Origin: Patescibacteria group bacterium
Lineage (GTDB): Bacteria; Patescibacteriota; Minisyncoccia; Phycocordibacterales; UBA1006
Assembly (NCBI GenBank): GCA_020428585.1
Contig: JAGQMP010000005.1
Span: 6,152 to 70,151, forward strand
Length of the DNA stretch: 64,000 nt
Direction of reading: 5' to 3'
The notes beneath the pieces were generated by a model. It searched no databases, had not been told where the DNA came from, and saw nothing but the letters and a program-made list of their open reading frames with translations. Shown in pieces: positions 19,904 through 60,581 of the stretch; position 1 is the first letter of the stretch; each line of letters opens with the position of its first letter. A program made the translations under genes and the position numbers.

Positions 19904-22900
19904 TTACTTATAAACCTCCATTGAGGTATTTCCAAATTCAACACAAGAATATCTAGATTCATCATGATCGCTAGACGATCTACATATATATTCTACACTT
20001 GATTTTCCTTGACCCTGGGATACGACGAGATAAGCCGTTTTTGCCCCATCAGCCGAGAAGGTCTGTCTGGATGTCTCTCCATCAATGGTAATATTTTTTG
20101 ACCTGTTTCGATTCCTTTTTGGATCATTTACCAAAAGGATGAATTCAGTATTTACCAAAACATCTTGTTGACCTCCTTCAACATTCACACGTATCTGTTT
20201 TTTATCTGGAATATCAGCATACCCAACCGCAACCATGATATGCCCTGGTTCACCAAACATAACCGGTCGATTTCTATCAATTGATGATTTAATCGTGGTG
20301 AATTTTTTAGCTGATCCTGGATCAAGGTGACGATACGACAAATCAATACTATCTTTCCCAAAATAATCCTCGTAGCCGCTGGTATAACCCAAAGCACAAC
20401 CTTCAAGCGAAGTCGTAGCAAAAGCTCCGTCGACTTCAAACCCTTGATAAGTACATGAATCGTCGAGGTTCTGCCCCTTGTCATTCCAAATAAATTCACG
20501 AAGGCCTTCATCGACTACTTCTCCATTAAAGGTGACGTTCTGGGACAGGTAACTCGGCAAGACGTCGTAATAACTAGCAATCATCACTGCGGAAGCCCCC
20601 GTACACATTGAGGTCCCGCCTTTCAGCGGTGAAGCAACCGATCCTGCAGTACCTAGGGGAACTGGTTCGCCATCTTTGTAGTACATTTGCTGTGGCAGAT
20701 ATGGTACATCGAGAATTTTTGCAGTAAGAATTTCTTCGGGAAGAGGTATGGAAACCTCTTCACCATTTTCATCTTTGACGGTTTTATCATCGCTAGGAAG
20801 TTTGATATTATATTCATCTACTAGTTGTTGAAGCTTGACGCTATCAACCACTTCGATAATGGTATTCCCGTATTCATCTGTGCTTACTTGAATAGCGTTT
20901 TGGCGCACCGATTCATCGATGAAGTCTTGCTGATCACGACGGAAAAGGTTTTTAAACCAATTCCACCCATCTTCGAACCAACCAACCACATCCTGGATAA
21001 AGGTTGTATCACCTTCAGATTCTTCAGTAGGTTCATCAGCTACAGGTTCTTCTTCTCCGACTTCCTCCTTCCCTTCAATCTCACCACAATTACTATCAAC
21101 GAAAGATGAAGTTCCAGGACCGAAGATACCATCGCTGGTGAGGTTGTTATCGGATTGGAATTCAGTTAGGGCTGCCTTGGTACCGTTCCCGAATATCCCA
21201 TCAATCGGTGGGCCGAGGTAGCCGAGGTCCCTCAAGAATATCTGCAATTTCACCACCGCCTCGCGATCGGAACTTCCCTTTCTGATACTTGGCTCTTCTG
21301 ATTGAATGTCGAGACAACTGTTTTCAAGGAGGTAAATGGGTTCTTCTTCGATTTCTTCTGGTGATTCTGGATCAGCTATTGGATCATTTTCAGTGTCGTC
21401 ATCAAGTTCGTCTTCATTATTATCAGTGTGTGACGATCCGCCGCCGGTGACTTCTTCTTCAATGGTGAAACTGCTTGAACCTGATAGATGCCCAGCTATG
21501 GCCGACAAAGTGTAAGTATCTGGTTCAAGATCAAAAACCAAAGAAAACTCGGCTGAACCGTCAATCATCTCTGCCTCGGTCGGACTGATATCTCGATCAT
21601 CAATAGCCAAGGTCAGTGTTCCTGTGTAATCAAAGTCATCAGCAAGGATACTTACCACGAGGTTCGTCGTCCCAAAAGGCAAACTGGTGTCGTGCTCTAG
21701 GCTAAAGTAATCGTCGTCAGATTCAGGATCGGTGACCTGAAAGGTATTCCCTTCACCTATTCGGTAATCATCTGAAACAACGATGTGGTAGGTTCCTGGC
21801 GAAACATCCAGTTCATCGATCGAAAAAGTTCCGTTGCCAGAGCTAAGAGAAAGACTGCCAAGGCTCGTTGAGGAATCATCAACAAGACTCAGATCCACCT
21901 CACCCGCATAATCAGGATTATAAGCGGCAACGCTAAATGATAATGGTTCAAGGCGAACAAGGTCATCAATATCAGAGACTTCGAAATAATTTTGTTCTTT
22001 TAATATATCAGGAATTGAAAGCCCGACATTGATTGATCGCGCCTCTTCACCATCAATATTCCAAAACCGCGTCATGCCAGAGGCGATGGTGTCTGATACA
22101 TCACTACTGGTCCCAGGATCAGCGCTAACCGACGTTCCCGTGACTGAACTTGTCACTACTTCACCAAGTGAAGATTCATCGTCCGCCATACGAAAGGAAT
22201 AGATCGCCAAAGGGTCACCCTCCCAAGCGAGACGCGTCGTGGTAGGTGACCATGTACCTTGGTTATCAACCGATCCATACAAGAACGGAGTTAGGTAGCG
22301 ACTAATTGATCCCTGATTTAATAAATCGCCAGTGAATGTAATATCTTCAGCGCTCGCAAGACTGCGCTCGCTTAATGAAGCGTCTTCTTTAATCCAGGTA
22401 AACAAAACATCGTTGGTATAACTGCGCATTTTGTGATTACCAGTTATAACAAGGTAGCGAGCGGTGATATTTCCAACCTGTAAGGTTTCTGTTGGATCAT
22501 TGACTCCAAACCAAACAATCCCGTTCGTGTCGAGGTCTCCTGAAAGGATATTCAACGATAGAACATTATCAGTGTCCGCAAAGGTAAGGGGAAAATCGTC
22601 CGTGATGAGAGTGTCGATCGAAGCACTATCAGATAAGGTAATCGGGGTCGCCAAGGTTACCGAAGTATCAAAAAATCCTGAAAGGGTGCGAACAACTTCC
22701 CCATTTAAGGTCAGATCCGACAACCATGTACCTTCATTACTAACCCCGCCATGAGCTATCACATCAATATATTGAAGAATCGTTCCTTGATTTATGAGAT
22801 CACCATACGTGTGAATCGTATAATTAGTACCAGAAGATTTCGGCCATAGAGAAGCACTTGGATGAATCATGATAGCATCATCTGCGCTAAGAGTATCATC

Positions 22901-23638
22901 GCGAAGGGTATGCGTGCCGTAGAAATTGATAGCCGTCGCACTAACATTACCGACTTGAGTCGTAGCGTCGCTACTATCATCCCCAAAATTGACGGTCGCG
23001 TTTGTACTAACATCGCCTGAAACTGTGGTGAGGTTGAGTGTCGCCTCAGACCCCTCGAAGGTAATCGCATAATGATTCGTAGTAAGAGAGGGCCAAAAGA
23101 TAATCGGACTCCCCGCAAGAGTGATCGGGGTTTCCAGGAAAACATTGATAGGAATAGTTCCATTAATAATTCGCGTTGATTCACCATTCAAACGCAGTTG
23201 ATTATTATTCCAGATTCCTAGTCCACCAATTGACCCAAGGGCAGTTGGTAAGACGTATTGGCCAACCGTTCCATCATTCAATAATCCACCCGTCACATCG
23301 AGGTCATAGGTAGTAAAACCGCTTCCATTTATTGTTGAGCCATTCGTTATATAAATCCCAGCAACCGTCGTATCAGATCGAAGTCTTACGAGTCCATTGA
23401 TTTCTACAACATCAGAGGATTCGGGAATTCTGCCTTCTTCCCAGGTAGTTACCTGGTCAAAAAATCCACCCTCAGCGACCGCGTGAAGGGTCGGTGATAC
23501 CGAAAAACCAGGGTCTTCTTGGGCAAAAGAGCTTTGCGTCAAAACATATAGACTTAAAATAGCTATAAAGAATAGATAATATAATTGTTGTCTGTATAGA
23601 TGGACAAACATAACCAAAATCATCATATCATTGCCCAT
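19904..23638 (-). CDS. Giant secreted surface protein (1244 aa): signal peptide, tandem ~150-aa N/T/G-rich repeats, acidic linker, peptidoglycan-binding-like domain, C-terminal C39-like cysteine peptidase domain
   Basis: Repeats GDLINQGTILQYIDVIAHGGVSNEGTW and GDLLNQGSISRYLTPFLYGSVDNQGTW. PG_binding_1-like LQIFLRDLGYLGPPIDGIFGNGTKAALTEFQ. C39_2-like SMCTGASAVMIASYYD ... GHIMVAVGY. Confidence 0.65.
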   Translation of the reverse strand: MGNDMMILVMFVHLYRQQLYYLFFIAILSLYVLTQSSFAQEDPGFSVSPTLHAVAEGGFFDQVTTWEEGRIPESSDVVEINGLVRLRSDTTVAGIYITNGSTINGSGFTTYDLDVTGGLLNDGTVGQYVLPTALGSIGGLGIWNNNQLRLNGESTRIINGTIPINVFLETPITLAGSPIIFWPSLTTNHYAITFEGSEATLNLTTVSGDVSTNATVNFGDDSSDATTQVGNVSATAINFYGTHTLRDDTLSADDAIMIHPSASLWPKSSGTNYTIHTYGDLINQGTILQYIDVIAHGGVSNEGTWLSDLTLNGEVVRTLSGFFDTSVTLATPITLSDSASIDTLITDDFPLTFADTDNVLSLNILSGDLDTNGIVWFGVNDPTETLQVGNITARYLVITGNHKMRSYTNDVLFTWIKEDASLSERSLASAEDITFTGDLLNQGSISRYLTPFLYGSVDNQGTWSPTTTRLAWEGDPLAIYSFRMADDESSLGEVVTSSVTGTSVSADPGTSSDVSDTIASGMTRFWNIDGEEARSINVGLSIPDILKEQNYFEVSDIDDLVRLEPLSFSVAAYNPDYAGEVDLSLVDDSSTSLGSLSLSSGNGTFSIDELDVSPGTYHIVVSDDYRIGEGNTFQVTDPESDDDYFSLEHDTSLPFGTTNLVVSILADDFDYTGTLTLAIDDRDISPTEAEMIDGSAEFSLVFDLEPDTYTLSAIAGHLSGSSSFTIEEEVTGGGSSHTDNNEDELDDDTENDPIADPESPEEIEEEPIYLLENSCLDIQSEEPSIRKGSSDREAVVKLQIFLRDLGYLGPPIDGIFGNGTKAALTEFQSDNNLTSDGIFGPGTSSFVDSNCGEIEGKEEVGEEEPVADEPTEESEGDTTFIQDVVGWFEDGWNWFKNLFRRDQQDFIDESVRQNAIQVSTDEYGNTIIEVVDSVKLQQLVDEYNIKLPSDDKTVKDENGEEVSIPLPEEILTAKILDVPYLPQQMYYKDGEPVPLGTAGSVASPLKGGTSMCTGASAVMIASYYDVLPSYLSQNVTFNGEVVDEGLREFIWNDKGQNLDDSCTYQGFEVDGAFATTSLEGCALGYTSGYEDYFGKDSIDLSYRHLDPGSAKKFTTIKSSIDRNRPVMFGEPGHIMVAVGYADIPDKKQIRVNVEGGQQDVLVNTEFILLVNDPKRNRNRSKNITIDGETSRQTFSADGAKTAYLVVSQGQGKSSVEYICRSSSDHDESRYSCVEFGNTSMEVYK

Positions 23639-23664: not shown

Positions 23665-24054
23665 TTATACGGACTTTTTTTGTTGCGATTGTGCGAGCAT
23701 ATCAGATCTAACCGATCCAAGATTAGGAGCATCTGGGTCAATCTTTCGTTTAAACTGATGAAGGTCTATGGGGGGTAAGTTAATATTGAGGCGTCCATTT
23801 AAGTCATCCACGATCATATTGATCCAAGATTCAATGGTATTTAGATTTTCATTAAAACCTTGGTCTATGAGGGATTGCTCTTCTTTTGAATATTTTCTTT
23901 TTGATGGAATATCTCTGAGAGTTGTCTCGAAACTCGATAATACCAATTGAAATGAAGAAAATAATATCCTGCCGATTTTATCTCCTGGTGCCTGTAATAA
24001 ACATTCACGGTGATAACGGTCTATGTAGTAAGCTACCTCGTTTCTTTCGCTCAT
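23665..24054 (-). CDS. Hypothetical protein
   Basis: 129-aa ORF in the same orientation as its neighbours. No motif recognised. Confidence 0.4.
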   Translation of the reverse strand: MSERNEVAYYIDRYHRECLLQAPGDKIGRILFSSFQLVLSSFETTLRDIPSKRKYSKEEQSLIDQGFNENLNTIESWINMIVDDLNGRLNINLPPIDLHQFKRKIDPDAPNLGSVRSDMLAQSQQKKSV

Positions 24055-24148: not shown

Positions 24149-24715
24149 TTAATTCACAATCACATGAATCGCGTCGATGATGTTCGTCGGGATCGCGTTG
24201 TGTTGGAACAGGGTCGCGCAGAGTCCTTCGGGTTCTTCATCAACATCGACAAAGAGAAAGGCGCTCTTGCCGACAAAGTCGACGCTGGTGACGGTAAGGT
24301 TGTCTTCGTCATAGTCTGGAAAATCAACATCGTCATCTTCCCCGTCAACTTCTTGGTCGACACATCCATCAAGACCAATCTCGGCGATGTTCTTGAGGTA
24401 ATAAAAGCCAAGAGTGAATGGTGCCGTTACCGCATTGATCGCCTGAGCAGCGTAAGAGGTAGTGGCAGTTCCACCTCGCGAAGAAGCACCTGACGACGAA
24501 CCTGCTTGTGCGTTTGAGGTTGCGTTCGAGAACGATTCAACGTACGGGTAATCGAGGGTGACTTCTTCACCGTTGATAATCTCGGTACGTGGGCTTGGTG
24601 CATCCGCGTCATTGCGGCGTTGCCCTTGGTTGATAAGGTAGATCCCAATGATAACAAGAATAATGGCAGCAATAATGGTTCCGATATGTTTCTTCATATG
24701 CTTTGAATATACCAT
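24149..24715 (-). CDS. Hypothetical membrane-anchored protein with acidic C-terminal region
   Basis: TM IGTIIAAIILVIIGIYLI. S/G/T-rich linker. The start may be the internal MKKHIG. Confidence 0.45.
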   Translation of the reverse strand: MVYSKHMKKHIGTIIAAIILVIIGIYLINQGQRRNDADAPSPRTEIINGEEVTLDYPYVESFSNATSNAQAGSSSGASSRGGTATTSYAAQAINAVTAPFTLGFYYLKNIAEIGLDGCVDQEVDGEDDDVDFPDYDEDNLTVTSVDFVGKSAFLFVDVDEEPEGLCATLFQHNAIPTNIIDAIHVIVN

Positions 24716-24849: not shown

Positions 24850-24876
24850 TAAAAAACCCTTTGTGATGAGGGTTTT
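24850..24876 (-). terminator. Intrinsic terminator downstream of leuS (aaaccct-ttgtgatga-gggtttt)
   Basis: Hairpin with flanking A/T runs immediately after the leuS stop. Confidence 0.55.
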
Positions 24877-27800
24877 AAACTATAACTAAACTGATTGCCT
24901 TGCCAGGGATATAGATAAATTTCTTTACTTCCTTCCCTTCGGTCCATTTCACCACTTCAGGTAGTGCCATCACCCGGTCGCGAAGGGTGTCCTCGTCTTC
25001 ATCATCTGAGACAATAATTTCGGCACGGACCTTACCGTTAATTTGTATGCCGATAGTCGTACTCTCATTCATAATCAATGACGTATCGGCAACGGGCCAA
25101 TCAGCGAGGTGGACCGAGGTATCGTACCCACCCGCTGTCTGCCACCATTCTTCGACGAGGTGAGGTGCAAACGGTGCGATCAATCGAGCCAAAATTTCAT
25201 AACTATTTTTACTTATCCCGCCAGCTTTCTCAGCGTCATTCACAAAGATCATCAAGGTCGAGATCGCCGTGTTTAATTTAAGGCGATCAATATCATCCGT
25301 GACCTTGAGGATAGTTTTATGCAAGGCAGAGGTTACCTGGTCTGATTCGGTATCAACGATATGTTCAGATAAGCGCCAGAATCGTTCAAGGAACCTACGA
25401 ATACCAACGACTCCGTTCGGATCCCAAGGATAACTACCTGGTTCATTAAAGGGACCGATAAAGGCCAGGTACATGCGTACCGTATCTGCGCCGACATGAC
25501 TGACAACTTCGTCAGGATCAATGACGTTGCCTTTTGATTTTGACATCTTGTTCCCATCAGGGCCGAGAATCAATCCGCGATTGAGGCGTCCTTGATAGGG
25601 TTCATCATGGGACACCAAACCTAATCGATAAAGCGCCTTCACCCAGAATCGACTGTATAAGAGGTGCATCGTCGTGTGTTCTGCCCCGCCAAAGTACATC
25701 GACACCGGCATCCAAGCATCTATCGCTTCTTTCGACGCAAAAACATCTTCGTTTTGGTTATCAAGGTAACGATAAAAATACCATGATGAATCAACAAAGG
25801 TATCCATGGTGTCCACCTCGGGTGTCCAACCTTTACCAAAGATTTCTTCGGTTCTCTTCTTCAATTCCTCTGATCGGGCAAGAGGTGCAGTACCGTCAGG
25901 AGTGTGGTCGACATCCTCGGGAAGTAACCACGGCAGATGTTCATCGGGCACCAGGTGTGGGGTGCCTTCAGGATCATAGACAACCGGAATCGGGCATCCC
26001 CAGTAACGCTGCCGTGAAATACCCCAATCGCGAATACGATAGGTGGTGGTTAATGCTCCACTAACTACATCGGTAATATTTCGACGTGCGTCTTCTGAAG
26101 TTTGGGTGTTGAAATCTGGCGAGTTAATGAGTTTACCTTCAAAAGTACACGAGAACCGCTTACCTTTCGGAAGGTATCCGTCAGCACATTCACCCAAGAG
26201 GTCGTACATCGCATTCCATTCAGCATTGATTTGAGATTGCCCTTTTTCTTCGGTTGCACCTGCTGAGAGGATAAACGCGTTTTCGCCTGTGGTAATCAGC
26301 TGCCTTGAATTCCCCACTGGTCCTGCCGACGGTAGTACTACAAAACGAAACGGTAAATCGTATTTCAAGGCAAACTCGCAATCACGTTCGTCATGCGCTG
26401 GCACGGCCATAACCGCACCAGTTCCCACATTCGGAAGAACGTAATCGCCAATCCATATTGGAATTGGCTGTCCGGTTGCTGGGTTTACTGCTTCGACCCC
26501 TTTTAACTCGACGCCATTTTTTTCCTTTGATTGTTGTCGGTCGAGATCTGATTTTTTAGACACCTCGGTGAGGTACGCATCAAGCTCATCACTATTGGCG
26601 ATGCGATTTTTTAATGAAGTTACAAGAGTGTGTTCAGGTGCCAGGACGAGGTAGGTTGCGCCAAACAAGGTATCAGCACGGGTCGTGAATACCTGTACTT
26701 GATCGAGAGTATCTTCACCCGAAACCACTCGCCATGGATAACGCATATCTTCACGTTTCAAAAAATCATTCACCTCGGCACGTGGTACCCATACGAATTC
26801 TGCGATGGCTTGTTCCTCGGCTGAGGATTCTTCCCTCTCCAGATCCTTTAGTTTTACGTGAACGATACGATAGTTCGCTTTGCGGTTTTGTTCTTTGACG
26901 ACATGCCAAAACAACCCGTGCGATGAACGGTCGTAGGCCTGTACGATTTCTGGGTTCTGATATCCGGTTTCCTCGCGTACTTCTTCCAAGGCGGTTTCTT
27001 CTGGAGTCTTGCCTTCATCAATGCCGCCAGTGACAAATCCCTGCCAATCCACCTGTTTCCATTTGGCACACAAAAATTCATCCTTGTCAGGGTGTTCAAT
27101 AATCACAACGACGTTGTCACGTTCGACGATTGGTTGACCTTCACGAAAGGCGTCATCCCCTGGACCTGTGTTTACATCGTAAGTTTCAGTTTCACGAATC
27201 GTAAAAGGAATCAGGCTACCCTCTTTTCGTCCGACCCATTCACGCTGGGCCTGTTTAATCGAATCATCCCACGGAAGTTTTTCAAGATCATCCACCAAAG
27301 CGTCGGCAAAATCGGTGATCTTCATCATCCATTGCGGCATGTCTTTTTGAATCACCTGGTTACCACAACGTTCGCAAGCACCTGCAACCACCTGTTCGTT
27401 GGCGAGAATCGTTTTATCGTGTTCACACCAGTTCACCTTAGTCACATCACGGTAGACGAGGCCGTTCTCGAAAAACCGGGCAAACATCCACTGGGTCCAC
27501 CGGTAGTACGATGGGTCACAGGTCGCCAAGGTTCGAGACCAATCAAAACTCGCCCCCATCGATGTGAGCTGTTTTTTCATATAATCCATGTTTTCGTAGG
27601 TCCACTTGTTAGGATCGAGGTCGCGTTTGATCGCCGCGTTTTCAGCTGGTAAGCCAAAGGCGTCAAATCCCATCGGATACAAAACATTGTAACCCTGCAT
27701 TCGTTTGAATCGAGCGTAGATATCAGGCACGGCAAAGGCGTACCAATGGCCCACATGGAGGTTTCCCGATGGATAGGCAAATTCAGACAGGGCGTAGAAG

Positions 27801-27907
27801 TTTTCCTTGCCTGCTACCTGGTTTTCCGTGCGGTAGGTCTGGTTCTCCCGCCACCAATCCTGCCATTTTTTCTCAATTTTCTGAGCGTCAAATCCCTTGT
27901 TATTCAT
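24875..27907 (-). CDS. leuS: Leucyl-tRNA synthetase carrying a ~165-aa inserted Nudix-like domain between the catalytic core and the CP1 editing domain
   Basis: HIGH-type HVGHWY. KMSKS. Editing-domain entry VFTTRADTLFGATYLVLAPEH. Insert (aa ~236-400) contains the Nudix-box-like GGIDEGKTPEETALEEVREETGY. Confidence 0.9.
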   Translation of the reverse strand: MNNKGFDAQKIEKKWQDWWRENQTYRTENQVAGKENFYALSEFAYPSGNLHVGHWYAFAVPDIYARFKRMQGYNVLYPMGFDAFGLPAENAAIKRDLDPNKWTYENMDYMKKQLTSMGASFDWSRTLATCDPSYYRWTQWMFARFFENGLVYRDVTKVNWCEHDKTILANEQVVAGACERCGNQVIQKDMPQWMMKITDFADALVDDLEKLPWDDSIKQAQREWVGRKEGSLIPFTIRETETYDVNTGPGDDAFREGQPIVERDNVVVIIEHPDKDEFLCAKWKQVDWQGFVTGGIDEGKTPEETALEEVREETGYQNPEIVQAYDRSSHGLFWHVVKEQNRKANYRIVHVKLKDLEREESSAEEQAIAEFVWVPRAEVNDFLKREDMRYPWRVVSGEDTLDQVQVFTTRADTLFGATYLVLAPEHTLVTSLKNRIANSDELDAYLTEVSKKSDLDRQQSKEKNGVELKGVEAVNPATGQPIPIWIGDYVLPNVGTGAVMAVPAHDERDCEFALKYDLPFRFVVLPSAGPVGNSRQLITTGENAFILSAGATEEKGQSQINAEWNAMYDLLGECADGYLPKGKRFSCTFEGKLINSPDFNTQTSEDARRNITDVVSGALTTTYRIRDWGISRQRYWGCPIPVVYDPEGTPHLVPDEHLPWLLPEDVDHTPDGTAPLARSEELKKRTEEIFGKGWTPEVDTMDTFVDSSWYFYRYLDNQNEDVFASKEAIDAWMPVSMYFGGAEHTTMHLLYSRFWVKALYRLGLVSHDEPYQGRLNRGLILGPDGNKMSKSKGNVIDPDEVVSHVGADTVRMYLAFIGPFNEPGSYPWDPNGVVGIRRFLERFWRLSEHIVDTESDQVTSALHKTILKVTDDIDRLKLNTAISTLMIFVNDAEKAGGISKNSYEILARLIAPFAPHLVEEWWQTAGGYDTSVHLADWPVADTSLIMNESTTIGIQINGKVRAEIIVSDDEDEDTLRDRVMALPEVVKWTEGKEVKKFIYIPGKAISLVIV

Positions 27908-27938: not shown

Positions 27939-28433
27939 TCAAAAAGATAGTTCAGCGATTTGTCTCTCTAAATCTTGAAGTTTCCCTCTATTGTGAATAA
28001 CAATCTTCGGCTCGATAATAGGCTCAAAACTGTCCTTAACCTTTAAGTATTGGTTGAAATCAGTTTTATTAATATCTTCCTTCCTCTCTAATATTCTTTG
28101 TTTAATTTGCTCATCACTAGGTCCCAAAACTTCAATAACAAAATATTTTTTCGACATACTCTTGGCTATGTCTAAAGCTCGATTTATATTTTTGCTAGAA
28201 GAGAATGTTGCATCTAAAATAACATTTTTGTTTTTTAAACTATTTTTTACTTCATTAAAAAATAAATCATAAACATGATCTATCTCCTCCTCTGAATAAG
28301 AAGGATTGGGGTACCACTTATTTCTAATTTCATTAGTTTGAAGAATAATCCCTCCAATTTTGTTATGAATAAGACGAGCAACGGTTGATTTTCCAACTGC
28401 AATATTTCCACAAACAAGAATTAACATATTCAA
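27939..28433 (-). CDS. P-loop NTPase / small-molecule kinase-like protein (AAA_33-like), in a low-GC island
   Basis: Walker A LVCGNIAVGKSTVARL. Length ~164 aa, typical of nucleotide/metabolite kinases. Confidence 0.5.
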   Translation of the reverse strand: MNMLILVCGNIAVGKSTVARLIHNKIGGIILQTNEIRNKWYPNPSYSEEEIDHVYDLFFNEVKNSLKNKNVILDATFSSSKNINRALDIAKSMSKKYFVIEVLGPSDEQIKQRILERKEDINKTDFNQYLKVKDSFEPIIEPKIVIHNRGKLQDLERQIAELSF

Positions 28434-28466: not shown

Positions 28467-28495
28467 AAAACAAGAATCATTTCTTGTTTTTCGCT
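28467..28495 (-). terminator. Hairpin aaaacaagaa-tcat-ttcttgtttt overlapping the pyrG stop codon
   Basis: Perfect 10-bp stem. Confidence 0.5.
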
Positions 28496-30171
28496 GCCTT
28501 AATCAACCCCGTAAACAAAGGATGCGGGTCGAGGGGCCGTGCTTGCAGCTCCGGATGAAATTGAACGCCGACAAAGAACGGGTGGAGTTTCTGATCAAGC
28601 TCGACGATTTCGGTTAATACCCCATCAGGCGAGGTGCCTGATACATGGAAACCCTTCTCCTCGAACATCTTTTGGTATTCATTCCCGATTGTATTTAATT
28701 CATATCGGTGGCGGTGGCGTTCGCTGATTGCTGCCTTCTTGTATACCTTGCGGGCGAGGCTGCCGGGTTTCAAATTTGCGGTGTAAGATCCCAGACGCAT
28801 CGATCCGCCGTAGTCACCTTGTTTCAATTTTTCTTTCTGTTCCGACAGGATATCGATAACGGGATGATCGGTATCAGGATTCACCTCGGTCGTGTGGGCG
28901 CCTTTCAGTTTTAATACATTTCGCGCAAATTCCACCGATGCCATCTGCATACCAAGGCAAATACCAAGGAACGGAATCTTGTTCATCCTGACATATTCGA
29001 TAACCGCAAGTTTACCGTCGATGCCGGACGATCCAAACCCGCCCGGTACAATAACGCCGCCGTAATTATGTAATCGTTTTAAGTTCTTCTTTTTTTCGGT
29101 ACCTTCAAAATCTTGCGCCTGCAGCCAATCAATCTTAACACTGACACCTAGCTCGGCGCCCGAGAATTTCAACGCCTCGATCACCGATACATAAGCATCC
29201 GACAAGACAAAATCACCCGTGCCGAAATATTTACCGACGATGGCGATGCTGACCTCGCCTTGTGATTTCTTGGTTTTGTTCACAAAACGATTCCAGGCCT
29301 GGCGGTTTTTTATTCCTTTTTGGTTGCTGCGCGATTTTAGGGATAATTTACGAAGAAGTTTTTGATCAAGGTTTTCTGATACAAAATGTTCAGGAAGGTC
29401 GTAAATGCTACTAAGGTTGGGCGCTGAAATAATATCCTCATCATGCAGCATCGATGAAGTCGCAATTTTGCCGCGACGGCGATCATCCATAATACCAGGA
29501 CTGCGACCGACAATAATGTCTGGGAAGATTCCAGATTCCTGTAGAGTTCTAACGGCCTGCTGGGTTGGTTTAGTCTTCATTTCCCCTAGGGTGCCAGGTA
29601 CTGGCAGGTACGACACGAGGACAAAGGCAACATCCTGTGGCGACTGGCGTTTCATCATGCGGGCCGCCTCGAGGAAGAGGATATTTTCATACTCGCCCAC
29701 GGTACCGCCAATTTCGACGACGGTGATCTCGGCGTCTTCCTTGTCGGCTGACCGTTGTATCTGGTCGATCACGGCCAAGGGAACGTGTGGCACAACCGAT
29801 ACTGTTTTACCTCCGTAACCAAGCGAACGTTCACGGTTAATGACAGTTTGATAAATCGATCCTGTTGTCATATACGAATCACGGGTTAAGGATCGATTTA
29901 AAAATCGTTCGTAGTTTCCCATATCCTGATCAGTTTCATAGCCGTCTTCCAATACAAAGGTCTCACCGTGTTCGGTTGGGTTCATAGTACCAGCGTCGAC
30001 GTTCACATAAGGGTCGATCTTTACCGCCGATACCTCATAACCAGCGAATTGCAGAATCTTACCAATCGATGATGCGGTGATACCCTTCCCCACGCCACTC
30101 ATCACGCCACCTACGACAAAGATGTATTTTCTCGTCTTCTTTTTTTGTGTTTTCTTTTTCATAGGTCTCAT
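28477..30171 (-). CDS. pyrG: CTP synthase
   Basis: N-terminal synthetase domain YIFVVGGVMSGVGKGITASSIGKIL. C-terminal glutamine amidotransferase GICLGMQ ... HPE. Confidence 0.95.
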   Translation of the reverse strand: MRPMKKKTQKKKTRKYIFVVGGVMSGVGKGITASSIGKILQFAGYEVSAVKIDPYVNVDAGTMNPTEHGETFVLEDGYETDQDMGNYERFLNRSLTRDSYMTTGSIYQTVINRERSLGYGGKTVSVVPHVPLAVIDQIQRSADKEDAEITVVEIGGTVGEYENILFLEAARMMKRQSPQDVAFVLVSYLPVPGTLGEMKTKPTQQAVRTLQESGIFPDIIVGRSPGIMDDRRRGKIATSSMLHDEDIISAPNLSSIYDLPEHFVSENLDQKLLRKLSLKSRSNQKGIKNRQAWNRFVNKTKKSQGEVSIAIVGKYFGTGDFVLSDAYVSVIEALKFSGAELGVSVKIDWLQAQDFEGTEKKKNLKRLHNYGGVIVPGGFGSSGIDGKLAVIEYVRMNKIPFLGICLGMQMASVEFARNVLKLKGAHTTEVNPDTDHPVIDILSEQKEKLKQGDYGGSMRLGSYTANLKPGSLARKVYKKAAISERHRHRYELNTIGNEYQKMFEEKGFHVSGTSPDGVLTEIVELDQKLHPFFVGVQFHPELQARPLDPHPLFTGLIKAAKNKK

Positions 30172-34736: not shown

Positions 34737-34821
34737 GCCGGAGTGGCGGAATTGGTAGACGCGTGCGACTCAAAATCGCATGTCTTCGGGCGTGTGGGTT
34801 CAAGTCCCACCTCCGGCACAA
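34737..34821 (+). tRNA. tRNA-Leu (anticodon CAA) with long variable arm
   Basis: Acceptor GCCGGAG/CTCCGGC. D-arm TGGCGGAATTGGTAGACGCG. Anticodon loop CTCAAAA. Long variable stem tgtcttcgggcgtgtg. T-arm GGTTCAAGTCCCAC. Confidence 0.85.
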
Positions 34822-59554: not shown

Positions 59555-60010
59555 CTATCCTAACATCTCAATAACGCGTTCCAGCATGACAATTCTATTA
59601 TCAAGGAGCTTTGCCTTCGCCTCATCCAAGGTAAACCATCCGTCAGCCTTTAATTCGGTCCGTTGGCGTTTAACCTTGGTGTTCTTTACGGTACCGACAA
59701 AATAGAGGACCTTTTTGATAATATCGGTCCCCTTTTTCTTTGGGATACGGTACCGTTCGGTAAACATCGTATTTCCGAGAAGTTCAACATCAACGATGCC
59801 AGTTTCTTCTCCAAGCTCGCGCAGCGCCGTTTCGCGGTGCGTCTCGTTGCCGTCTTTATGCCCCTTGGGAAATCCCCAAAACCCTCCGTATCCTTGAACA
59901 AGAAGGAATAAGACCTTCCCGTCACTATTCACGTGTACCGGGATAACCCCGCAGGAAATTCGGTGACGCATGACTGACCGAAGTATACCAGGAGAGGGCC
60001 TCCCTAACAA
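59555..60010 (-). CDS. Nudix hydrolase
   Basis: Canonical Nudix box GHKDGNETHRETALRELGEETGI (G-x5-E-x7-REUxEExGU). Confidence 0.8.
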   Translation of the reverse strand: MLGRPSPGILRSVMRHRISCGVIPVHVNSDGKVLFLLVQGYGGFWGFPKGHKDGNETHRETALRELGEETGIVDVELLGNTMFTERYRIPKKKGTDIIKKVLYFVGTVKNTKVKRQRTELKADGWFTLDEAKAKLLDNRIVMLERVIEMLG

Positions 60011-60041: not shown

Positions 60042-60581
60042 TTAAAGGGCCACCAAGGCACGGTACACTTCGGCGGTAGCACGTGCATCAGCAAGTGCAG
60101 TATGGGCTCGATCGTTCGTAATACCAAAACGATCACAGAGCGCGCCAAGGCTGTATTTCCCCGCTGATGGATCCTGGTGTAATTTTGCAAAGGCAAACGA
60201 AATGGTATCAAGTTTCGCGTAATACATTTGATTTTCGACATTCGTCGTTGCAAAGGCCTTGGCGATAAAAGACCAATCAAAGGCTGCATTATGCGCAACA
60301 AAGATACAATCTTTGGTTTTTTCGGCGAACACCTTCATTGCCTGCATCAAATCCATAGCAAAGAGCCATTCAGCCTCGTTATAGCCGTTCACCGATAAAG
60401 CTTCGGGATCAGCTGCTTCGAGATGCTCGGGCTTTACCTTCAAATCAAATTCGTCAATGACCTCACCTGGTATCCCGTCATTCTGTGCAACAATAACACA
60501 ACCAATCTCGATGATTTCTTGGGTTTCGACATTAAATCCGGTGGTCTCGATATCTATAAATGCTAGATTTTTGTTTTTCAT
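60042..60581 (-). CDS. DEDDh 3-prime to 5-prime exonuclease (DNA polymerase III epsilon-like)
   Basis: Exo I FIDIETTG. Exo II VAHNAAFDWSF. Exo III HTALADARATAEV. Confidence 0.8.
   Translation of the reverse strand: MKNKNLAFIDIETTGFNVETQEIIEIGCVIVAQNDGIPGEVIDEFDLKVKPEHLEAADPEALSVNGYNEAEWLFAMDLMQAMKVFAEKTKDCIFVAHNAAFDWSFIAKAFATTNVENQMYYAKLDTISFAFAKLHQDPSAGKYSLGALCDRFGITNDRAHTALADARATAEVYRALVAL

Follow-up and report, generated by a model that had tools for sequence, protein, structure and literature searches.

A Nudix hydrolase domain inserted into the CP1 hairpin of a leucyl-tRNA synthetase from Patescibacteria

Extra domains are known from several aminoacyl-tRNA synthetases (aaRSs), among them the INS/YbaK domain of prolyl-tRNA synthetase (ProRS) and the appended domains of eukaryotic aaRSs. 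Bacterial-type leucyl-tRNA synthetases (LeuRSs; TIGR00396, e.g., Escherichia coli 4AQ7 and Thermus thermophilus 1H3N) combine the HIGH and KMSKS motifs with the connective peptide 1 (CP1) editing domain and with anticodon-binding and C-terminal domains. The aaRSs are a main source of diadenosine tetraphosphate (Ap4A), which Nudix enzymes degrade and whose physiological role is still debated (PMC10148737). The LeuRS that we describe here shares the bacterial-type layout and, in addition, carries a Nudix hydrolase domain within CP1. Its gene, leuS, lies in a stretch of 64,000 nucleotides (nt) from a Patescibacteria group bacterium (contig JAGQMP010000005.1), which as a whole is referred to below as the window.

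A complete Nudix domain at the tip of the CP1 hairpin

The leuS open reading frame (ORF; 24875..27907, minus strand, like all leuS features given below) encodes 1010 residues plus a stop codon and was identified as a bacterial-type LeuRS with an insert from the ORF list, NCBIfam, Pfam, and Foldseek. When the protein was aligned to E. coli LeuRS with HMMER, residues 7 to 240 and 404 to 530 matched segments lying only about 3 residues apart. Because these flanks are nearly adjacent in E. coli, the 163 residues from 241 to 403 (26699..27187) represent an insertion, and they make up the Nudix hydrolase domain. The insert is located at the tip of the first CP1 beta-hairpin, just before the Thr-rich editing motif, where E. 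coli LeuRS has NDYDNT, and its junctions read ...TETYDV and ...LDQVQV. The first strand of this entrance hairpin (SLIPFTIRETET, residues 228 to 240; 27188..27226) aligns to VEITFNVNDY of E. coli and forms the ascending half of the Nudix stalk; DSSP assigned a strand to residues 228 to 239 in the AlphaFold2 model of the window LeuRS, and one hairpin strand reads SLIPFTIRETE. The hairpin is 14 to 16 residues long in close relatives lacking the insert (e.g., SLIPFTLSNNEIVQV) and 15 in E. coli, shorter than the 20 to 30 residues that a preliminary description of this locus had taken as the normal spacer. The same description had proposed a Nudix-like insert of about 165 residues at the CP1 entrance of the 1010-residue LeuRS, with alignment to reference LeuRSs and structure prediction as checks. 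The insert was borne out by the alignment, which delimits it at residues 241 to 403, and by the following domain match and models.

Residues 263 to 386 matched PF00293 (NUDIX) in Pfam with an E value of 9.8e-12 and 45.5 bits, well above the gathering cut-off of 21.1. Modeled alone with AlphaFold2, the insert adopted the alpha/beta/alpha sandwich of the Nudix fold with a predicted local distance difference test score (pLDDT) of 91.5; within the full-length model its pLDDT was 80 to 95, the mean of the whole model being 87.7. The stalk strands were predicted at residues 228 to 239/241 to 245 and 400 to 408, with a pLDDT of about 80 to 93. Residues 241 to 403 make up an entire Nudix-fold domain that interrupts the CP1 hairpin at its tip, and both strands of the hairpin are retained and extended as a two-stranded stalk.

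An alignment artefact or a lineage-typical CP1 extension was excluded, given the short hairpin of insert-free relatives and the confident Nudix fold of the insert. We likewise excluded an intein or intron on the basis of the junction residues and because Pfam found no Hint or LAGLIDADG domain and Rfam found just a tRNA in the window. A recent foreign insertion in the window genome was not supported either, as the guanine-plus-cytosine (GC) content of the insert (47.6%) matches that of the remainder of leuS (48.0%).

The host enzyme scored 872.2 bits against TIGR00396 (leuS_bact, NCBIfam; cut-off, 548.4), was matched by tRNA-synt_1, the LeuRS editing domain, and Anticodon_1 in Pfam, and aligned to E. 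coli LeuRS with a template modeling (TM) score of 0.83, normalized to the target (Foldseek). Both class I signatures are present, namely, HIGH as HVGH (residues 51 to 54; 27746..27757) and KMSKS (residues 787 to 791; 25535..25549). The CP1 editing domain proper runs from residue 404 to about residue 590 (26138..26698), with PF13603 matching residues 399 to 530. Its Thr-rich FTTRADT and the aspartates of HDERD are intact, and T408, T409, R410, T413, D506, and D509 were invariant in our LeuRS alignment (A1). The blocks on either side of the insert, REWVGRKEG and VFTTRADT, occupy residues 222 to 230 and 406 to 413. The HIGH, KMSKS, Thr-rich, and Asp editing motifs of the host LeuRS are all intact.

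Besides the Nudix domain at the hairpin tip, the window enzyme differs from E. coli LeuRS in having an extra 44-residue segment, modeled as two helices (residues 531 to 574; 26186..26317), and in lacking the leucine-specific domain, which in E. coli comprises about 45 residues before KMSKS (593 to 637 in the numbering of the tagged protein); the corresponding region here is residues 784 to 786 (25550-25558). The two-helix segment is conserved in relatives and lies within the region that in other LeuRSs harbors a Nudix module, called site B below.

A Nudix subfamily in LeuRS, ProRS, and stand-alone genes

A protein identical to the window LeuRS and many relatives were present in public assemblies. 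Those to which depositors gave a name are Candidatus Pacebacteria, Paceibacterota, Campbellbacteria, Nomurabacteria, Kaiserbacteria, or Patescibacteria metagenome-assembled genomes, which places the source of the window among Paceibacteria-type bacteria of the candidate phyla radiation (CPR). The databases label these proteins only as LeuRS or as a "class I tRNA ligase family protein." Whether related genomes carry the insert had been left as a check by the preliminary description, and they do: at least one module of the subfamily was found in 76 of the 120 closest LeuRSs. When 1.84 billion representatives were searched exhaustively with HMMER, 306 relatives of the module were retrieved at E <= 1e-3. 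Among the best 150 of these, 91 were in LeuRS and 32 were stand-alone, full-size proteins (140 to 215 residues), the remainder being fragments or other proteins.

Within LeuRS, the modules occupied at least three positions. Site A is the hairpin used in the window, site B falls within the editing domain (window residues ~524 to 583), and site C is a loop flanked by LPxxLPEDV and EVDTMDTF (window residues ~678 to 697). Some proteins (P0123, P0124, and P0127) harbored two or three copies. Site B (L008), site C (L009, L013, and L020), and true stand-alone genes (L010 to L012 and L014) all yielded modules 46 to 55% identical to that of the window, while other site A modules (P0028 and P0057) shared just 24 to 33% identity with it. 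Since identity cuts across sites in this way, different Nudix lineages have filled site A and one lineage has landed at different sites. No stand-alone homologue adjoining leuS was seen at L010 or L011.

The module also occurs in five class II ProRSs (P0193 and P0273 to P0276), between the anticodon-binding and C-terminal domains. The last four are 61 to 100% identical to P0193 and come from independent assemblies; two of the ProRS genes are at L024 2906-4837 and L025 3720-5744. The nearest insert-free relatives of these ProRSs bear the depositors' names Nanoarchaeota or Woesearchaeota, which are DPANN names. At L025, the ProRS gene is flanked by a stand-alone NUDIX gene, an AAA_18 kinase gene, and a MazG-like gene. 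The modules constitute a distinct Nudix subfamily, found in stand-alone genes of about 170 residues, in three surface loops of LeuRS, and in class II ProRS.

In some relatives, a tandem cassette (L003 4017-4957; P0004, P0007, P0011, P0012, and P0096) consists of a window-type Nudix and, after it, another, divergent one whose box is canonical, e.g., GGGLEPNETTRQTAVRELREELGL in P0007, and LeuRS then reaches 1153 to 1160 residues.

The Nudix box of the window module (GGIDEGKTPEETALEEVREETGY, residues 294 to 316; 26960..27028) comprises G294, K300, E308, E309, E312, E313, and G315. Counted from G294, its 23 residues depart twice from the consensus, with K300 in place of Glu at position 7 and E308 in place of Arg at position 15. 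To the preliminary description the box had appeared canonical save for an Arg-to-Glu change; E308 is indeed that change, and the second departure had been missed. We gathered 229 related modules with the subfamily hidden Markov model (HMM). G1 was conserved in 228 of them, E16 in 227, E19 in 220, E20 in 228, and G22 in 222. Positions 7 and 15 read ER in 152 modules; both were replaced in 67 (QA, MA, KE, KD, DK, and others) and only one in 10, so that the two positions are strongly coupled (Fisher P = 5e-46, kinship ignored). Because they change together, we read K300/E308 as a charge-swapped version of the canonical Glu7-Arg15 pair rather than as decay, one that would not abolish activity. The earlier suggestion that Arg-to-Glu may signal lost catalysis finds no support in this covariation or in the near invariance of E16, E19, and E20.

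Outside the box, residues R263, W283, W288, F333, W334, K338, N341, R342, E365, and W373 (26786..27121) are characteristic of the subfamily. R263 was conserved in 215 of the 229 modules, K338 and N341 in 220 each, R342 in 189, E365 in 199, and W373 in 216, and position 334 is a conserved aromatic. An aromatic residue about 17 residues past the box, which stacks on adenine, marks the asymmetric Ap4A hydrolases; a candidate counterpart here is F333, which follows Y316 by 17 residues and is F or Y in 212 modules. Nudix catalysis in general relies on the first Gly, the box glutamates, and a remote Glu or Gln (PMC5424795). The corresponding metal-binding and catalytic set, G294, E309, E312, E313, and the remote E365, is present in the window module and kept in 199 to 228 of the 229 modules. 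The box glutamates, E365, the basic R263/K338/R342, and the aromatic F333/W334/W373 are kept in free and embedded modules alike. E365 is a candidate remote metal ligand, and together the conserved residues outside the box look like a polyphosphate-plus-base pocket.

The fold and the Nudix superfamily assignment of the insert are secure, and within the superfamily it belongs to a subfamily of its own without a characterized member. Its best Protein Data Bank (PDB) sequence matches were the Ap4A hydrolases 1F3Y (8e-6) and 3I7U (5e-4), covering mainly the box half. Further structural neighbors listed were the Ndx1 Ap6A hydrolase (14.6), AvrM14 (14.4), the Rv2985 ApnA hydrolase (14.2), and DDP1/DIPP1 (13.4 to 14.0), along with the lupin and Caenorhabditis elegans Ap4A hydrolases and RppH. 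With the (di)nucleoside polyphosphate hydrolases of this set (lupin, C. elegans, Aquifex 3I7U, Ndx1, Rv2985, and RppH) the insert shares just 15 to 22% identity. It differs from them in the K/E at box positions 7 and 15, an N-terminal extension (DVNTGPGDDAF..ER), a K-x-x-N-R motif, and its embedding in an aaRS, and it reaches no curated family threshold of known hydrolases of this kind.

The window also encodes a stand-alone Nudix protein (59555-60010, minus strand; 151 residues, Pfam E = 6e-16), directly downstream of a DEDDh RNase_T-type exonuclease gene (60042-60581). The resemblance of its box to that of the insert, pointed out in the preliminary description, turned out to be generic: the two share 36% identity over 64 residues, the stand-alone box is canonical, and the protein scored 17.5 bits against the subfamily HMM, compared to about 140 to 220 for members. 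We therefore rejected it as donor or paralogue of the insert.

Proposed cassette exchange and function

On a tree of the LeuRS core (trees were built by neighbor joining on short domains), filled and empty alleles were interleaved. P0007 (1153 residues, with the tandem Nudix) and P0016 (848 residues) are 96.6% identical and differ by one clean 305-residue indel, and P0012 and P0033 are 94.8% identical with a 309-residue indel. These pairs lie in syntenic contigs with 96 to 98% and 93 to 94% nucleotide identity, respectively. A third pair, P0040 (with Ham1 at site A) and P0047, is 94.2% identical in protein and 87 to 92% in nucleotides, with different synteny, and is too diverged to show a recombination tract.

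Around the indels, the hairpin residues differ between alleles (KIQESE...ETK versus TLSNNEIVQ), and divergence peaks directly downstream of the cassette. For P0007/P0016 we counted 18 mismatches in the first 115 nt and then about 1.3 per 100 nt; for P0012/P0033 there were 26 and 18 per 100 nt compared to about 5. Synonymous codon differences numbered 9 and 11 for the two pairs in the first 40 codons, compared to 8 and 22 in the next 200. A simple deletion as the origin of the empty alleles does not fit this largely synonymous spike. The pattern in both pairs fits homologous recombination with a diverged allele, in which hairpin and cassette would have been replaced along with a short tract downstream. 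Between L003 (2820-3269) and L021 (1893-1992), loci otherwise 96 to 98% identical, there is a second indel, about 350 nt in length, upstream of leuS.

Modules in the window clade have diverged in step with their hosts, and they are better conserved than the core of the LeuRS that carries them (69% versus 50% for the most distant pair). This is consistent with an insert that is old and has been vertically kept in this clade.

Other enzyme domains are inserted at the site A hairpin in the LeuRSs of P0025/P0030/P0039, P0040/P0045, P0094/P0116 (DUF559), P0097, and P0098/P0099, and P0213 has a full Ham1 domain (E = 1e-59) at a further site (P0016 reference positions 691 to 693). Cassettes without a significant Pfam match are present in P0085 (120 residues), P0210 (130 residues), P0045 and P0186 (131 residues), and P0247 (188 residues); P0045 and P0186 share one such module at yet another site (P0016 reference positions 485 to 493). 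The idea of an exchangeable slot for in-frame cassettes within essential aaRS genes finds partial support. In its widest form, which we put forward only tentatively, the CP1 hairpin, at least two more LeuRS loops, and the ProRS linker would be slots for interchangeable in-frame enzyme cassettes in ultra-small bacteria of the CPR, gained, lost, and swapped from strain to strain by homologous recombination across flanks such as GRKEGS.IPF, with Nudix as the commonest passenger because it would remove dinucleoside polyphosphates made by aaRSs. If this were true, cassette slots would amount to an accessory genome nested in essential translation genes.

As to function, we lean, by little more than an even chance, toward an active, autonomous pyrophosphohydrolase that is tethered to aaRSs and plausibly clears Ap4A-type by-products. 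Judging from its conserved residues, the inserted domain is probably active. Since the attachment point varies, the module is unlikely to need a fixed placement with respect to the active sites of LeuRS. Given its occurrence at three attachment points, in a second, unrelated synthetase, and in stand-alone form, it would most likely act in trans on a small, diffusible nucleotide-polyphosphate and not on a ligand bound in those active sites. Its embedding would provide one module copy per synthetase, adjacent to adenylate-making enzymes. Dinucleoside polyphosphates (Ap4A/ApnN), which are side products of aaRSs, would be the most likely substrates, given the repeated capture by aaRSs and the ApnA-hydrolase flavor of the nearest neighbors, and yet this assignment is a guess.

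Several observations weigh against this proposal. The full consensus GX5EX7REUXEEXGU is incomplete in the insert, which has all positions but 7 and 15. Matches to characterized Nudix enzymes are all weak: the subfamily profile scored at most 31 bits against PDB chains, the best NCBIfam match of the insert, RppH, reached 32.2 bits with a cut-off of 118, and the best structural match, 2AZW, has a PDB title that states no function. LeuRS is not known to be among the strongest Ap4A producers. Near-identical LeuRSs without any insert exist, and the same hairpin holds unrelated domains in close relatives, namely, Ser_hydrolase (alpha/beta-hydrolase), Ham1, DUF559, HAD_2, ASCH, and cassettes without a Pfam match; because of these two facts the hairpin may merely be permissive, and a link to aminoacylation may be absent.

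This last point leads to the main rival explanation, which we consider rather unlikely, namely, that the module is active in house-cleaning or salvage without any mechanistic link to aminoacylation. Organisms with small genomes would then use the CP1 hairpin merely as a docking site for accessory enzymes, one that is permissive, essential, and expressed constitutively. Such a role agrees with the variety of cassettes at the same site, with the presence or absence of the insert between LeuRSs 94 to 97% identical, and with modules in several different loops. Moreover, Nudix, Ham1, and HAD cassettes belong to families acting on nucleotides or phosphate esters, which would suit nucleotide sanitation in salvage-dependent CPR bacteria. 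However, the subfamily is overwhelmingly associated with aaRSs, as seen in the share of LeuRS among its best 150 matches, and a single permissive hairpin would not predict independent capture at three LeuRS sites and in an unrelated class II ProRS. An action on RNA 5' ends near the synthetase, similar to that of RppH or decapping enzymes (5'-triphosphate, NAD caps, or Np4N caps), appears improbable: kinship with RppH, the best NCBIfam match, would favor it, but at 32 versus 118 bits the score is far under the cut-off, the module is found at three attachment points and as a free protein, and mature tRNA bears a 5' monophosphate.

We give still less credence to an inactive Nudix fold attached to the editing domain in a structural, tRNA-binding, or regulatory role. 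The two replaced box residues (K300 and E308) and the confidently modeled stalk to the editing domain (pLDDT ~80 to 93) would agree with it, but E309, E312, E313, G294, and E365 are near-invariant across modules just 25 to 40% identical, positions 7 and 15 change jointly, with the pair preserved instead of decaying, and the same residues are kept in free-standing homologues. Equally remote, in our judgment, is a selfish in-frame element, kept because the gene it sits in is essential and spread by recombination or homing while the host gains nothing from it. Its patchy distribution on the host LeuRS tree, the two pairs with clean indels in syntenic surroundings (93 to 97% nucleotide identity) and a mostly synonymous downstream spike, and the endonuclease-like DUF559 cassettes at the same site are what such an element would leave. 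On the other hand, Pfam and Rfam revealed no Hint or intein motifs and no ribozyme, and inspection of one junction pair gave no sign of terminal repeats, although no dedicated repeat search was made. Module divergence that tracks host divergence in the window clade, a GC content equal to that of the rest of the gene, and strongly constrained catalytic residues also speak against it.

Genomic setting and comparison with known systems

Directly upstream of leuS, on the same strand, are genes for CTP synthase (28477-30171) and for an AAA_33/dNK-like P-loop kinase (27939-28433); the intervening gaps measure 44 and 32 nt. Kinase and aaRS genes do not form a conserved pair, since the AAA_33 kinase is not kept in relatives; only pyrG is, upstream of leuS at L001 to L003, L005, L021, L026, and L027. 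Apart from a tRNA-Leu(CAA) gene (34737-34819, plus strand), Rfam and ARAGORN detected no RNA gene in the 64 kb. On the other side of leuS lies a 1244-residue ORF (19904-23638, minus strand), in which only the peptidoglycan-binding domain PG_binding_1 was recognized (residues 792 to 843); no Pfam match was obtained for the small ORFs (23665-24054 and 24149-24715) that separate this ORF from leuS.

No such module was found in any solved LeuRS by structure comparison, and a full-text search, in which literature coverage was incomplete, retrieved no paper on Nudix-bearing LeuRS or ProRS or on cassette polymorphism in CPR synthetases. An essential, universal phylogenetic marker can carry polymorphic enzyme cassettes of 150 to 300 residues in CPR lineages, and this bears on annotation, on the alignment of marker genes, and on how we understand the gain and exchange of functions by reduced genomes.

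A curated precedent for an essential synthetase with an added globular domain is NF040702, an isoleucyl-tRNA synthetase (IleRS) with a GNAT domain. Unlike in such aaRSs, the passenger here is a Nudix pyrophosphatase, lies inside CP1 instead of being appended, is polymorphic between near-identical alleles, and is interchangeable with other enzyme cassettes. Inteins and homing elements resemble the insert in being in frame within an essential gene, patchy among close relatives, and bounded by recombination-like flanks. The insert, however, has no Hint domain, splicing motifs, or endonuclease, remains part of the mature protein, and appears to be under enzymatic constraint.

A functional parallel is offered by the LysRS-Ap4A-NUDT2 axis and bacterial Ap4A turnover by ApaH, RppH, and YqeK, which follow the same logic of an aaRS that makes Ap4A and a Nudix enzyme that degrades it (PMC10148737). 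There, the enzyme that makes the nucleotide and the one that hydrolyzes it are distinct proteins, whereas the LeuRS-Nudix protein, with its predicted activity, would join both in one polypeptide. In such a fusion one would have a natural "Rosetta stone" that ties synthetases to the turnover of their own nucleotide products, such as Ap4A, and natural LeuRS alleles with and without the module, 95 to 97% identical, offer a simple system in which to test this link.

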